Assembly: GCA_018436095.1 (NCBI GenBank)
Contig: JAHDMJ010000005.1
Coordinates: forward strand, 76,400-140,399
Length of the DNA: 64,000 nucleotides
Reading direction: 5' to 3'
Source of the DNA: Clostridia bacterium
GTDB taxonomy: Bacteria; Bacillota; Peptococcia; DRI-13; UBA5745
The notes below the pieces were generated by a model. The model made no database searches, was not told the DNA's origin, and saw only the letters and a list, made by a program, of their open reading frames with translations. This document shows positions 12,595 through 52,544 of the stretch, piece by piece. Within the stretch, counting starts at the first letter, position 1, and every line of letters starts with the position of its first letter. The position numbers were made by a program, and so were the translations under genes.

Positions 12595-12660
12595 GACAAA
12601 ACCCCTTTCTTAAAATATATTGTAATGCGAGGAAAATGCCTCAGCCAAAGGCTGGGTCGG

Positions 12661-12890
12661 GGGCACTGAAAAAGCTGCCTCAGTCTCAGCCGGGTGTACA
12701 AAATTTGAAGTATTATGTGGTTCGCTTTGTTGAAATAGGTATTTCAATCCTACTTAGACACTAAATGCAGGAAAAGGACGGTGCTCAGGGCGGCAAAACT
12801 TGAAATTCCGAGCAGTTAGCTGAGGCAAATACACATAATACCTGGTTTTTTGTACACACGGCTGGATAGGAAGCGACTTTTTCAGTGCCC
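12661..12890. mobile_element. 230-bp MITE-like non-autonomous element, copy A
   Basis: Imperfect terminal inverted repeats of about 60 bp: GGGCACTGAAAAAG..CAGCCGGGTGTACAAAA..GTATTATGTG at the left against the reverse complement at the right. No ORF. Flanked on both sides by TCGG / GGCTGGGTC. A full-length homologous copy lies in opposite orientation at 41389-41618. Confidence 0.7.
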
Positions 12891-12922
12891 TCGGCTGGGT
12901 CAGCCTTTTTGTGCTTTCTTCC

Positions 12923-40896: not shown

Positions 40897-40942
40897 GAAA
40901 TTCGGTTTACCGCGCTCTAGCAGCAAAGCAGCCGCCATTGGT

Positions 40943-41136
40943 CTGAGGCGGTGAAGCAGTGGGTTGGCAAGCCGGCGAGGCAGTGAGGGGCAGCCTGAGG
41001 CAGTGGGTAGTAGCCTAAGGCAGTGAGTGGCAGCCTGAGGCAATGAGTGGCAACCTGAGGCAGTGAGTGGCAACCTGAGGCAGTGAGTGGCAACCTGAGG
41101 CAGTGGGTGGCAACCTGAGGCAGTGAGTGGTAAGTC
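40943..41136. repeat. Tandem 20-bp repeat GAGGCAGTGAGTGGCAACCT, 8 clear copies plus 1-2 degenerate
   Basis: Units start at 40977, 40997, 41017, 41037, 41057, 41077, 41097 and 41117. A single related unit occurs at about 52215-52236. Confidence 0.9.
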
Positions 41137-41142
41137 AACACT

Positions 41143-41388
41143 CAAAATTTCAACTTTGTACCCGACTGCCAGGCATTTTGTGCAAAATTGCAAGTTTGTA
41201 TCCCTTATTCATGCAATTTTTCGCTTAAAGTTTCAGATTTATGGTATAAATAAACTTTTTCCCTCATAATTTTAAATTCAAGGCATATTTTGGCTAGACA
41301 AACCTGCAATTTTGCACAGTTAGCCTAAGCGAACGGGAACAAACCTGCAATTTTGCACATTTGCCAGGGAAACGGGTTGACAAACTGA
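41143..41388. repeat. Opposed 41-bp-phased motif arrays around an AT-rich 88-bp core (copy 2 of the family)
   Basis: AAAATTTCAACTTTGT at 41154 and AAAATTGCAAGTTTGT at 41194. The reverse complement ACAAACCTGCAATTTT is at 41298 and 41339, with a truncated ACAAACTG at 41380 (spacing 41, 41). Confidence 0.8.
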
Positions 41389-41618
41389 GGACACTGAAAA
41401 AGTCGCTTTCCATCCAGCCAGGTGTACAAAAAATGAGGTTTTACGTTTGTTTGCCTTAGCTAACTGCCAATATTTCAAGTTTTGCCGTACTGATCACCGT
41501 CTTTTGCCTGGATTTAGTGTCTAAGGCGGATTAAGTGCCTATTTTAATAGCGCGAACCCCACAATACTTCAAAATTTGTACATCCGGCCATAACCACTAA
41601 GGCTCCTTTTTCACGGTC
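41389..41618. mobile_element. 230-bp MITE-like element, copy B, inverted relative to copy A
   Basis: Colinear over its whole length with the reverse complement of 12661-12890. Examples: GGACACTGAAAAAGTCGCTTTCCATCCAGCCAGGTGTACAAAAAA against GGGCACTGAAAAAGTCGCTTCCTATCCAGCCGTGTGTACAAAAAA, and ATTTAGTGTCTAAG shared internally. Its last 22 bp are the final codons and stop of the ABC gene. Confidence 0.7.
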
Positions 41619-43324
41619 AGAAGCCGGCCGCCCATGAGGGCCACCTCGTCCTGACTATGGGTCACCATCAGCGTGGTAATGCCTTGGCTGTATTGCCGGA
41701 TATAATTGGCGGTCATCTCTTTATTTTGCTCATCCAGCCCTTTGAGGGGCTCATCCAAAAACAACACCTGGCCTGCTGCCAGCACGGCCCGGCAAATAGC
41801 CACCCGGCGCCGCATACCGCCGGAAAGCTCCCGTACCGGCTGCTCCAGGCTGTCTCCCAGACCCAAGGCTGTCAAATGAGCGGTTATGGCAGCCGGGGCG
41901 GTTTTTTTGCCGCAGGCAAACCCGATATTGGCTATAGCATTAAAGCTTTCGCAAAGCCGGTCCTCTTGAAATACGGCGCTGATCTTCAGGCCTGCCAAGC
42001 CTGTGATGCTTCCGGCATCCGGCTGCTCCAGGCCCATTAAAATGTGGAGCAGCGTGGTCTTGCCTACGCCAGAATCCCCCATGATGCAGGTGCAGTTGCC
42101 CCCGGAAAAGGTGGCGCTGTAATCCTGCAATACTTTTTTATTGCCATATACTTTGGTAAGCCCTTGCACTTCAATATCCGGCAAAGGCTGGGAAAAGCCG
42201 GATCCTGCCGGCAGCACCGGGGTTTCAACGGCAGGCTTCGAAGCCTGGGCTACAGCAACCCCCGGCAACGACCTCTCGCTGACGGAAGGCTCTACCTCCG
42301 GCCCATCTTCCAGCCCCCCGGCTTCCTGTGTCCCGGCTTCCGGCATCCCGGCTTCCTGTGTCCCATCTTCCAGCCCCCCGGCTTCCTGTGTCCCGGCTTC
42401 CTGCATCCCAGCCCCCAGCGTTCCGGCCTCCAGTGCGCCGGCCTTCGGTGCGCCGGCCCAAAGCCCCCGGCCGGCGGCAACAGAACCGGCATTCACCGCT
42501 GGCTCATACCTGCCTATACCCTCCAATTTGCGGTAAGCTATTTTGATGAGGGCGATAAACAGCTTTTCAAAAGCCACACTGATCAAAATAATTACCGCGG
42601 TCCAGGCAAAAAGATCCTGGGCATTAAGATATATCTTGGCTTGATACAGCATCTCGCCGATAGAGCCGCCGGGAATACCAATGACTTCGGCGGCGATACC
42701 GGATTTCCAGGTCATGCCAAGAGATATGCTGCAGGCCGAAAGCAAATAGGGCTTTAACTGGGGCAGGTAGATATAGACCAGCCGCCGGCCCCAGCCGGCC
42801 CGAAAAACCGCCGCCATCTCCAGCAGATGCCGGTCGGTACTCCGTATGCCTTGCAGCATATTGGTATAAATAACGGGCAGCACCATCAAAAACGAAATGA
42901 TGATTGATAAATTGCGGGAACCCCACCAGATCAGGCAAAGAATGATGAAGGAAGCCACCGGCGTGGCTTTAATTACCGTGATGTAGGGCCAAAACAAAGT
43001 CTCCAGCAAAGGAAAACGGCCGGCAGCCGCAGCTAGCAGCGAACCAAGGGCTAAAGCGGCAAAAAAACCGGTGACAATCCGGCTGAAAGAAAACCAAACT
43101 GTCTGCCAAAAGCTCAACTGGCTCCATAAGGCTAAAAGCCTGCGGAATACCGCCGCAGGCGTAGCCACCAAAAAGCCGCCCAAAACTACGAAGTGCTCAA
43201 ACAGCATAGCCCCCAACTGCCACAGAATCAGAGCCAGCAATACGGAGAATAACAACGGGTATCTTCGTTGGTTCTTTAATCCTTCTTTATTTCTGGTAAT
43301 AGAAATCATCTCCCGGCAGAGCAC
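41597..43324 (-). CDS. Fused ABC transporter permease-ATPase (NitT/TauT family) with a repetitive A/G/E/Q-rich linker
   Basis: 575 aa. The N-terminal half is a BPD-type permease. The linker is EAGTLGAGMQEAGTQEAGGLEDGTQEAGMPEAGTQEAGGLEDG (DNA tandem repeat at about 42290-42420). The C-terminal ATPase has GDSGVGKTT, LSGGMRRR, LFLDEP and VTHS. The start may be ATG 43309 (MISITRNK). Confidence 0.8.
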   Translation of the reverse strand: MLCREMISITRNKEGLKNQRRYPLLFSVLLALILWQLGAMLFEHFVVLGGFLVATPAAVFRRLLALWSQLSFWQTVWFSFSRIVTGFFAALALGSLLAAAAGRFPLLETLFWPYITVIKATPVASFIILCLIWWGSRNLSIIISFLMVLPVIYTNMLQGIRSTDRHLLEMAAVFRAGWGRRLVYIYLPQLKPYLLSACSISLGMTWKSGIAAEVIGIPGGSIGEMLYQAKIYLNAQDLFAWTAVIILISVAFEKLFIALIKIAYRKLEGIGRYEPAVNAGSVAAGRGLWAGAPKAGALEAGTLGAGMQEAGTQEAGGLEDGTQEAGMPEAGTQEAGGLEDGPEVEPSVSERSLPGVAVAQASKPAVETPVLPAGSGFSQPLPDIEVQGLTKVYGNKKVLQDYSATFSGGNCTCIMGDSGVGKTTLLHILMGLEQPDAGSITGLAGLKISAVFQEDRLCESFNAIANIGFACGKKTAPAAITAHLTALGLGDSLEQPVRELSGGMRRRVAICRAVLAAGQVLFLDEPLKGLDEQNKEMTANYIRQYSQGITTLMVTHSQDEVALMGGRLLTVKKEP

Positions 43325-51936: not shown

Positions 51937-52114
51937 GAAATTCCTTTCGCCCTGCCTCTGGCAACAGATGATCCTACCGCCTGTCTCCGGCAGCAGATGA
52001 ACACCGTTCTTCTATCGAATTATTCGATGAAGCAATTTGTTTTCAGTAGTATAGCCCCGGCTAAGGTTTTTGTCAAATAAAAAACGGCGCCGAGGCTATA
52101 GGAGGCGGTCACGG

Positions 52115-52198
52115 CTGCCGCCGGGGGCATGGTTGCCGGCCAGGAATACGACTGCCGCCGAAGGGCATGGTTGCCGGCCAGGGGTACGGTTGCCGAGG
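52115..52198. repeat. GC-rich 37-bp tandem repeat, 2 copies plus a partial third
   Basis: CTGCCGCCGGGGGCATGGTTGCCGGCCAGG at 52115, CTGCCGCCGAAGGGCATGGTTGCCGGCCAGG at 52152, and partial GGTTGCCGAGG at 52188. Confidence 0.85.
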
Positions 52199-52205
52199 CA
52201 AACCC

Positions 52206-52524
52206 AAAATTGCAGGCATCAGTGGAGTAGGGAGTCATGGCTAACACTCAAAATTGCAGGTTTGTCGTTGTTCGCATAGTCTAACTGAGCAAAAATGCAG
52301 GTTTGTTGTCGTTCGCATAGGCTAACTGAGCAAAATTGCAGGTTTGTATACCTCTAAATCCCTGCTTTGGAACGGCTTTGGCCCGCAAATGGGGTAAAAA
52401 CCCTATTTCCAGGCCAAAATACCTTTTACAAACCTGCAATTTTGCTCAAAATGCCACGACCCTGGAAACAAACTTGCAATTTTGCACATTTCCAAGTACA
52501 TGCCGGCTACAAACCTGCAATTTT
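52206..52524. repeat. Opposed 41-bp-phased motif arrays around an ~80-bp core (best-preserved copy of the family)
   Basis: AAAATTGCAGGTTTGT at 52250, 52291 (one mismatch) and 52332, with a partial copy at 52206. ACAAACYTGCAATTTT at 52428, 52468 and 52509. Confidence 0.85.
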
Positions 52525-52544
52525 TGTACAAAAATTCGTTTCAC

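Follow-up and report, generated by a model that had tools for sequence, protein, structure and literature searches.

Two convergent genes of a Clostridia bacterium, a DUF4363 gene and an ATP-binding cassette (ABC) transporter gene, are separated by a non-coding repeat element at positions 41139–41386 of the 64-kb stretch of contig JAHDMJ010000005.1 analysed here (the window). The element, which we call locus 1, consists of two opposed arrays of a 21-bp motif around a central core. Two units on the minus strand form the left arm, two units and the beginning of a third on the plus strand form the right arm, and successive motifs are spaced by 40, 114 and 41 bp (Table 1). When the 16-mer ACAAACCTGCAATTTT was searched with up to three mismatches, ten occurrences were obtained in the window, every one of them at locus 1 or at a second locus at 52.3 kb (locus 2); the chance expectation is 0.97, and ten occurrences were reached in 0 of 100 shuffles.

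A first-pass annotation of this DNA had quoted the left-arm sequences correctly, but its positions of 41154 and 41194 are each 10 too high (the true starts are 41144 and 41184); the plus-strand units of the right array lie at 41298 and 41339, where it had put them. It was also right that a third unit stands on phase at 41380 (ACAAAC) and is interrupted by a miniature inverted-repeat transposable element (MITE), which we find to be derived from an IS1182-family insertion sequence (IS), although this MITE starts at 41387 rather than 41389 and measures 232 rather than 230 bp. The uninterrupted form of that unit exists in two paralogous copies of the element (L027 and L019; loci outside the window are given L numbers throughout), which carry ACAAACCTG(C/T)AATTTTGAGCA at the same place. 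The inter-motif spacer GCACAGTTAGCCTAAGCGAACGGGA matches the reverse complement of the locus 2 spacer at 21 of 25 positions (counted by eye), and the two loci have the motif and both arm types in common, which bears out the proposal that they are true homologues. Their cores differ: as had been noted, that of locus 1 is much more AT-rich (27.6% compared with 45% GC), but it spans 98 bp (41200–41297) and not 88 bp (41210–41297).

A high-copy family with a conserved 21-bp motif

Scanning the two-unit pattern against one genome per species matched at least 60 loci, all in a single metagenome-assembled genome (MAG), Clostridiales bacterium concoct.bin.65. This sister MAG is about 94% identical to the window over 8 kb and holds the orthologue of locus 2 (L011); the MAG sequence compared here comprises 60 loci of 8 kb each (480 kb). 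JGI metagenomes yielded only two matches to the family, both from the same lineage, and the family appears to be lineage-restricted. Nearly all loci have two to five minus-strand units, a core and two to five plus-strand units at a spacing of 40–41 bp, in non-coding elements of 200–500 bp; the window contains two copies.

About 300 units (303 analysed) share ACAAACYTGCAWTTTTGMNCA at a phase of 40–41 bp, a period close to four helical turns. The conserved unit is a directional 21-bp sequence, ACAAAC(C/T)TGCA(A/T)TTTTG(C/A)NCA, with positions 1–21 carrying 1–2 bits of information each, compared with less than 0.45 bits per position in the other 20 bp. Positions 20 and 21 read CA in 92% and 89% of units, respectively (TG when read from the outside), and the motif contains the inverted half-sites TGCAA-NN-TTGCA. 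In clusters of homologous spacers, the spacers diverge three to four times as much as the motifs (for example, 0.42 compared with 0.12), and pairwise identity within core family A is 0.87–0.92 for the motif, 0.76 for the core and 0.57–0.72 for the spacers. This slower divergence of the motif suggests that the copies are old and that the motif has been specifically maintained.

When the proteins encoded in the 480 kb of MAG loci were clustered by similarity, no recurrent gene was found beside the arrays, and we therefore consider the element to be non-autonomous. Rfam gave no match at gathering thresholds and none above noise when E values up to 1 were allowed, no tRNA was found, and there was no match among viral contigs, phage records or plasmid records. 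The first-pass annotation had raised the possibility of promoter activity in the core; sequence scans of the elements found no excess of promoters or terminators. Motifs for sigma-54, Rex, CodY, IHF and attC were tried as candidates and rejected, their matches being poor.

Two arm types around exchangeable cores

The earlier suggestion of conserved arms enclosing a variable core holds across about 60 copies, in which at least six core families (A–D, listed in Table 1, and several more) lie between homologous arms. A high AT content is confined to one core family and does not characterize this type of element as such. Family D cores are well conserved among their three copies (locus 1, L027 and L019), and within them TGGTATAAAT (41242–41251) is invariant and resembles an extended −10 element.

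Oriented by core, 25 of the 26 family A copies carry an identical pair of arm types. Arm type 1 has the inner unit ACAAACTTG, AAAWGCC-type spacers and a 40-bp period, and arm type 2 has the inner unit ACAAACCTG, GTTAGCC..GCGAACGRYG spacers and a 41-bp period. The linkage of T or C at position 7 of the unit to the spacer class extends across all core families (Fisher p = 4e-8) and is obeyed by both window loci, with locus 1 presenting the same two arms around a different core. In L023, compared with its paralogue L043, the arm spacers are swapped and the position-7 variants have stayed with the core, a pattern that points to one inversion with breakpoints within the inner motif.

A variant of the unit that forms a perfect 26-bp palindrome, ACAAACCTGCAA-TT-TTGCAGGTTTGT, occurs in L019 (at about 5810), L051 (about 352) and L059 (about 1461) and shows the 12-2-12 geometry of the hix and gix sites of invertases. 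Core family B is found inside a larger MITE of 600–800 bp (L014 1661–2450; L017 5475–6086; L016; L050; L079), which has terminal repeats of its own, CCTGAGTTCCCGCAAAATTAAACC, and 6–7-bp duplications (GTGGAT, AAACAA). Family B thus presents an array element that lies within another MITE and has been amplified together with it. We rejected CCTGAGTTCCCGCAAAATTAAACC as a general terminus of the elements, because it is restricted to core family B and to single copies beside family A at L027 and L043.

Outside the arms, most elements are flanked by locus-specific, GC-rich short tandem repeats with periods of 10–22 bp (for example, at L018, L045, L043 and L053). These flanking repeats, including those at window positions 40957–41140 and 52100–52200, contain oriented GGCA(C/G)TG sequences resembling the tip of IS1182-type terminal repeats, and oriented GGCASTG motifs are 14-fold enriched in the outer flanks of the family. 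The repeat beside the left arm of locus 1 has GGCA every 10 bp and a unit that resembles such a tip (CTGAGGGCACTGA). BLAST against the 60 MAG loci found neither a counterpart of this 20-bp tandem repeat at other loci nor any similarity of the adjoining 40897–40956 segment to other copies. In a short-read assembly of the same strain (L061, a Logan contig from SRR13787010), the contig ends at 3065, inside the 20-bp tandem repeat beside the element; tandem repeats next to elements fragment assemblies of this lineage.

Elements arrive at new intergenic sites

The arrays of locus 1 belong to an inserted block, 40897–41618, and about 700 bp separates the stops of the two convergent genes in the window. 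We located the DUF4363 orthologues in two relatives: in L064 (91% amino-acid identity) the stops of the DUF4363 and ABC-transporter genes overlap, 7 bp lies between them in L066 (77% identity), and the motif was not found in either of these empty-site loci. Locus 2 is occupied in relatives at 94% (L011 and L077) and empty in a relative at about 74–75% identity, in which the intergenic region at L072 measures 207 bp and contains no motif; L080 likewise has an empty site (62 bp) in place of the MAG locus L010. Presence or absence in relatives, which had been proposed as a check, therefore takes the form of empty orthologous sites at three loci (locus 1, locus 2 and L010), with boundaries that are approximate, because the right junction of locus 1 is confounded by the truncated MITE and the relative that informs locus 2 and L010 is too diverged. 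The whole block 40897–41618 is an insertion, and elements arrive at new intergenic sites. Their position is intergenic in every case, and 16 of 46 lie between convergent genes, compared with 16% of adjacent open reading frame (ORF) pairs (p = 0.0012).

Close relatives vary at the 3′ end of the ABC-transporter gene (window 41597–41620; L064 1784–1830; L063 5390–5440; L066 5398–5420), and L063 has a 16-bp tandem duplication there that is not in L064.

The motif end is a target of an IS1182-family IS

The left terminal repeat of the locus 1 MITE, GAGGACACTGAAAAAG, starts at 41387 and cuts the third unit after 41386, next to TGACAAACT. The sequence GAGGGCACTGAAAAAG is the terminal repeat both of a 1.6-kb IS (L003 and L038) and of short derivatives. 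The transposase of this IS (486–531 amino acids) matches NF033551 (IS1182 family) at 360 bits, and full-length copies (Table 1) have the exact 9-bp duplications AGTTTATAG and GGTTTGTAA, which are the ACAAAC end of the unit. Among the sequences compared, 18 of 44 terminal-repeat tips abut a unit end. On the metagenome contig L078, the IS sits at the inner unit of the locus 2 orthologue; the insertion is polymorphic there, and the IS is therefore active. Insertions of the co-resident IS1182-family IS and its MITEs preferentially target the ACAAAC end of the motif.

With terminal repeats equal to those of the IS in L003 and L038 and no transposase gene, the 41387–41618 segment is an IS1182-family MITE; its interior did not arise from the IS by deletion and includes weak unit-like sequences with 7 mismatches in 21 positions. 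An intact reference copy of 234 bp (12659–12892), outside any array, has the perfect 9-bp target duplication GGCTGGGTC on both sides. The locus 1 MITE aligns with this copy to the end but retains a single junction, the left: the right terminal repeat has been lost after CTTTTTCA, where it is joined to the 3′ end of the ABC-transporter gene, and the last codons and stop of that ORF (41597–41599) lie inside the MITE terminal repeat. The missing right tip, set against the intact copy, suggests that a deletion fused the MITE to the ABC gene, a point left slightly ambiguous by the likeness of the tail to that of L066.

Three elements (L005, L031 and L037) are bracketed by IS1182-type terminal repeats in the correct orientation. 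The flanks of L037 carry a decayed duplication (GATTTGTCT / GGTTGTCT), the sole case in this bracketed subfamily. We rejected the GAGGGCACTGAAAAAG tip as the own terminus of the elements in general, because it belongs to the IS1182-family IS and to MITEs with exact 9-bp duplications. Weak matches to the terminal-repeat core GGCACTGAAAAAGTC, with up to three mismatches, occur at approximate window positions 2425, 30606, 42131, 56657 and 58503, and some of them are probably due to chance.

An IS3-family IS occupies an array spacer in L026 (about 343–1800), with a single ORF of 507 amino acids that matches NF033516 at 377 bits. Its gene was rejected as an autonomous partner of the family, because the IS is a secondary insertion into the spacer and the 41-bp period is restored on its removal. 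We also rejected the interval from 41.3 to 52.3 kb as a transposon bounded by the two window loci; ordinary metabolic genes lie inside it, and each locus is a self-contained opposed array, as at 60 other loci.

Table 1 Features of the two window loci, core families and full-length IS copies (positions are in the window unless an L number is given; a point marks features with no strand assigned)
Feature	Position	Strand	Details
Locus 1, leftmost 60 bp of inserted block	40897–40956	.	Absent from empty sites L064 and L066
Locus 1, GC-rich 20-bp tandem repeat	40957–41140	+	About 9 copies of GAGGCAGTGAGTGGCAACCT; flanks left arm; 61% GC; part of insertion
Locus 1, left-arm outer unit (21-bp motif, degenerate)	41139–41159	-	ACAAAGTTGAAATTTTGAGTG on minus strand; 16-mer match 41144–41159, 3 mismatches
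Locus 1, left-arm inner unit	41179–41199	-	ACAAACTTGCAATTTTGCACA on minus strand; T at position 7; outward, then AAATGCC-type (S2) spacer; 16-mer match 41184–41199
Locus 1, family D core	41200–41297	.	98 bp; 27.6% GC; degenerate unit-like stretches; paralogues L027 1520–1617 and L019
Locus 1, right-arm inner unit	41298–41318	+	ACAAACCTGCAATTTTGCACA; C at position 7; then GTTAGCC..GCGAACG (S1) spacer
Locus 1, right-arm second unit	41339–41359	+	16-mer match
Locus 1, ACAAAC end of third unit	41378–41386	+	TGACAAACT; left-hand copy of the MITE's 9-bp target; outward AGTTTGTCA, fits preferred target RGTTTGYNN
Locus 1, MITE	41387–41618	+	232 bp; IS1182-type terminal repeats (GAGGACACTGAAAAAGTCGC...); 82% identity to L012 2389–2612
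Locus 2, outside left arm	52100–52244	.	GC-rich imperfect repeats; at 52205, part of a fourth unit (AAAATTGCAGG)
Locus 2, left arm (three units)	52245–52347	-	52245–52265, 52286–52306, 52327–52347; S1 spacers; 41-bp period
Locus 2, family A core	52348–52427	-	80 bp; hairpin GGCCYGRAAATRGGG / CCCYATTTYCRGGCC
Locus 2, right arm (three units)	52428–52529	+	Units at 52428, 52468, 52509; S2/S3 spacers; 40–41-bp period
Core family A			78–80 bp; about 21 copies including window 52348–52427; 69-bp and 90-bp variants
Core family B			151–152 bp
Core family C			About 118–122 bp
Core family D			98 bp; locus 1, L027, L019
Full-length IS1182-family IS	L003 1846–3475; L038 319–1947; L060 from 2584; L078 up to 1321		At ACAAAC end of array units

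A proposed mosaic mobile element

We interpret window positions 41139–41386 as a single member of a non-coding family of mosaic mobile elements, present in high copy and restricted to one lineage, with the motif as a putative protein-binding site, and we put the probability of this reading at about 0.6. The motif would be bound by a transposase or recombinase that acts in trans and whose gene lies at another place in the genome. Assembling on the phased sites of both arms, this protein would propagate the element and keep the motif intact, and the element itself would encode nothing. At locus 1, the third unit was cut by one IS1182-type MITE, the outer tip of which was lost later in a deletion that reached the ABC gene. 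Because a subset of elements is bracketed by terminal repeats of the IS, the IS1182 transposase seems to be the best available candidate for a mobiliser. For the host, the element is probably neutral or mildly regulatory. A more speculative extension, which we doubt holds, is that the phased 21-bp arrays act as dedicated landing pads and synapsis platforms, with a lineage-specific DNA-binding protein (the IS1182-family transposase, perhaps, or one of its partners) assembling on the two opposed arms, such that IS and MITE insertions would be steered into harmless copies that offer them a safe haven, and core exchange or inversion between arms would be promoted.

Several observations weigh against the mobile-element interpretation. 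The binding protein is one that we infer throughout, and no autonomous element with arrays at its ends was found among the 60 MAG loci of 8 kb. Target-site duplications at the arm edges or within 60 bp of them were not found in 59 elements, for which the result equals that of shuffled pairings. A cut-and-paste element would not usually have locus-specific outer flanks such as these, which include the 40957–41140 repeat. IS1182-type terminal repeats cannot be recognised at most elements, and the 21-bp motif is absent from the full-length IS itself; where terminal repeats stand near arrays, they could therefore result from targeted insertion and not be element ends. Moreover, the rule used to detect units (up to three mismatches in 16 bp) could partly inflate the gap between motif and spacer divergence, although no unit is missing inside any array, which counters this concern.

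The same arrays might instead be a platform domesticated by the host, in which a nucleoid-associated, ParB/SopB-like or regulatory protein bound to them organizes the chromosome or regulates or insulates neighbouring genes, and spread is secondary. This would suit a motif that is conserved much better than cores and spacers among copies 25–40% diverged, a strict 40–41-bp phasing that puts the sites on one face of the helix, and inverted half-sites typical of dimeric binders, of which a 26-bp perfectly palindromic variant exists. The F-plasmid centromere sopC offers a parallel, with 43-bp repeats that each contain a short palindromic SopB site. We nevertheless think a host function unlikely: the family is restricted to one lineage, with only two JGI metagenome matches, three of three orthologous sites are empty in a relative at about 75% amino-acid identity, the copies hold cores unrelated to one another and contain numerous IS insertions, the bias towards 3′ gene ends is typical of tolerated selfish DNA, and a candidate protein is lacking. 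An action at the RNA level, either by a read-through transcript whose arms fold into a long interrupted hairpin (for termination, stabilization or processing) or by a small RNA encoded in the core, appears distinctly unlikely. Whole elements do fold far better than shuffles (z = −5.3 and −11.8), but low folding energy is expected of any inverted repeat; and although the family A core hairpin folds on one strand only (−11 compared with −2.5 kcal/mol) and has many G–U pairs, compensatory double changes were not found in any of its pairs. The spacers of the two arms are not complementary and therefore only 21-bp stems would form. Enrichment between convergent genes, the L010 element in the place of a relative's terminator hairpin and the invariant TGGTATAAAT of the family D core would fit a role in RNA, yet there is no Rfam match beyond noise and no excess of promoters or terminators in the elements, and the directional 21-bp motif with its strict phasing on DNA is better explained by protein binding.

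That homology between copies breaks exactly at the motif edge, with unrelated cores between homologous arms, could indicate a site-specific recombination module in which the arms resemble multi-subsite sites of the res or six type and a recombinase inverts or exchanges the core as a cassette switch; the clear inversion between L023 and L043 and the hix/gix-like palindromic variant in L019, L051 and L059 would agree with it. Such a switch is very improbable, given that only 1 of 26 family A copies is inverted, a rarity expected from ordinary recombination between 21-bp inverted repeats, and that the locus 2 orthologues (window, L011 and L077) are all in one orientation. Nor was a recombinase gene associated with the arrays found, and the usual unit is non-palindromic, with a conserved CA at positions 20–21 where a palindrome would need GG. 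The first-pass annotation had drawn an analogy with iteron-type replication origins, to which a plasmid remnant may be added, citing phased repeats around an AT-rich unwinding core. Origins of that type have direct iterons beside a rep gene and number one or a few per replicon. A directional 21-bp motif, phased repeats and a core of 28% GC in the locus 1 copy are what the analogy has in its favour, but it is scarcely credible for arrays that are inverted and not direct, occur in at least 60 copies per genome with cores that are otherwise not AT-rich (45% GC in family A), show a bias towards 3′ gene ends, and have no rep or par gene nearby and no plasmid or phage match; here the block is an insertion between convergent genes and is missing at the same site in relatives.

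Comparison with known repeat systems

In organization, the mobile element proposed here appears closest to the Neisseria intergenic mosaic elements (NIMEs) and to MITEs with multi-site ends, with the Staphylococcus aureus repeat (STAR) as a looser parallel, and by sequence and defining tests it belongs to none of them. In NIMEs, a repeat of about 20 bp (dRS3, ATTCCC-N8-GGGAAT) brackets many unrelated 50–150-bp families (RS elements), in intergenic arrays that have a dynamic number of repeats, accumulate other repeats and IS, and contain in the repeat a target of a mobile-element recombinase (PMC1797815). The present family likewise has a short conserved repeat around unrelated cores, is intergenic, varies in repeat number and accumulates other repeats and IS, and its repeat is targeted by a mobile element. 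By contrast, its motif is a directional 21-mer of another sequence, whereas the NIME repeat is palindromic; its units are strictly phased at 40–41 bp in two opposed arms around a single core, whereas NIMEs form long alternating arrays; and its host is a Clostridia lineage, in which no associated phage or recombinase was found. STAR elements are direct repeats of a 14-bp GC-rich motif at intergenic loci that expand and contract (PMC3532100). The likeness lies in a short conserved intergenic motif, at least 40 bp of less conserved sequence between motifs and loci of variable size; STAR elements, however, have neither opposed arms nor a central core, and their motif is unrelated to the 21-mer.

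Like MITEs, the elements are small, non-coding and dispersed in many copies (at least 60 MAG loci and two in the window), are polymorphic for presence, and have inverted ends in the form of inverted 21-bp arrays, though their true termini are undefined. The target-site duplication of a MITE is missing at the arm edges, and no array-flanked gene was found as an autonomous partner in the 480 kb of MAG loci, where a subset of elements has terminal repeats in common with an IS1182-family IS. The segment at 41387–41618 does resemble IS1182-family MITEs, having the terminal repeats GAGGGCACTGAAAAAG in common with the 1.6-kb IS, and 9-bp duplications. The ends of Tn7 and Mu each contain several directional transposase sites of about 22 bp, differ from one another, have 5′-TG at the outer edge and enclose a cognate transposase operon. 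The two to five directional units per arm, two differing arms and TG at the outer unit edge recall these ends in structure only: a 5-bp target duplication, as made by these transposons, was not found, and the arms lie 69–153 bp apart with no gene between them. Unlike MITEs, Tn7 and Mu, moreover, the present elements vary in unit number and have locus-specific outer flanks and several unrelated cores.

Repetitive extragenic palindromic sequences and bacterial interspersed mosaic elements (REP/BIME) are IS targets, as in IS1397-type insertion into REPs, and BOX elements have the form boxA-boxB(n)-boxC with tandem subunits of about 45 bp. Both resemble the present family in being intergenic repeats that are specific IS targets and modular, with variable tandem subunits, but neither has two opposed arrays around a core; and in contrast to REP/BIME, the present unit forms no hairpin, having only 5-bp half-sites (TGCAA/TTGCA) 2 bp apart. 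No gene for a REP-associated tyrosine transposase (RAYT) was seen beside the arrays in the loci compared by similarity clustering, which included no search aimed at RAYT or Y1 transposases. Clustered regularly interspaced short palindromic repeats (CRISPR) form arrays of direct repeats of at least 23 bp with unique spacers, a leader on one side and cas genes; the present family differs in that the conserved part is 21 bp, the arrays are opposed, the 20-bp spacers fall into recurrent families, and no cas-like recurrent gene was seen.

Implications

The family is of a known kind, that of interspersed mosaic repeats and MITEs, with an unusually regular architecture and a clear link to an IS. How most interspersed repeats (REP/BIME, NIME, BOX and STAR) propagate is unknown, and these repeats shape genome plasticity. 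The present family is unusually readable, with a delimited 21-bp motif at fixed phase, distinguishable arms, exchangeable cores and a co-resident, evidently active IS1182-family element that inserts at the motif and also flanks some copies; the partner protein and the mechanism of propagation are therefore directly testable. The family would provide a defined example of an IS homing into a repeat family and, if the landing-pad extension were true, a previously undescribed bacterial system of cassette exchange and self-targeting repeats. In the annotation of these Clostridia genomes, the family accounts for contig breaks, for large insertions between genes and for an altered 3′ end of a gene.

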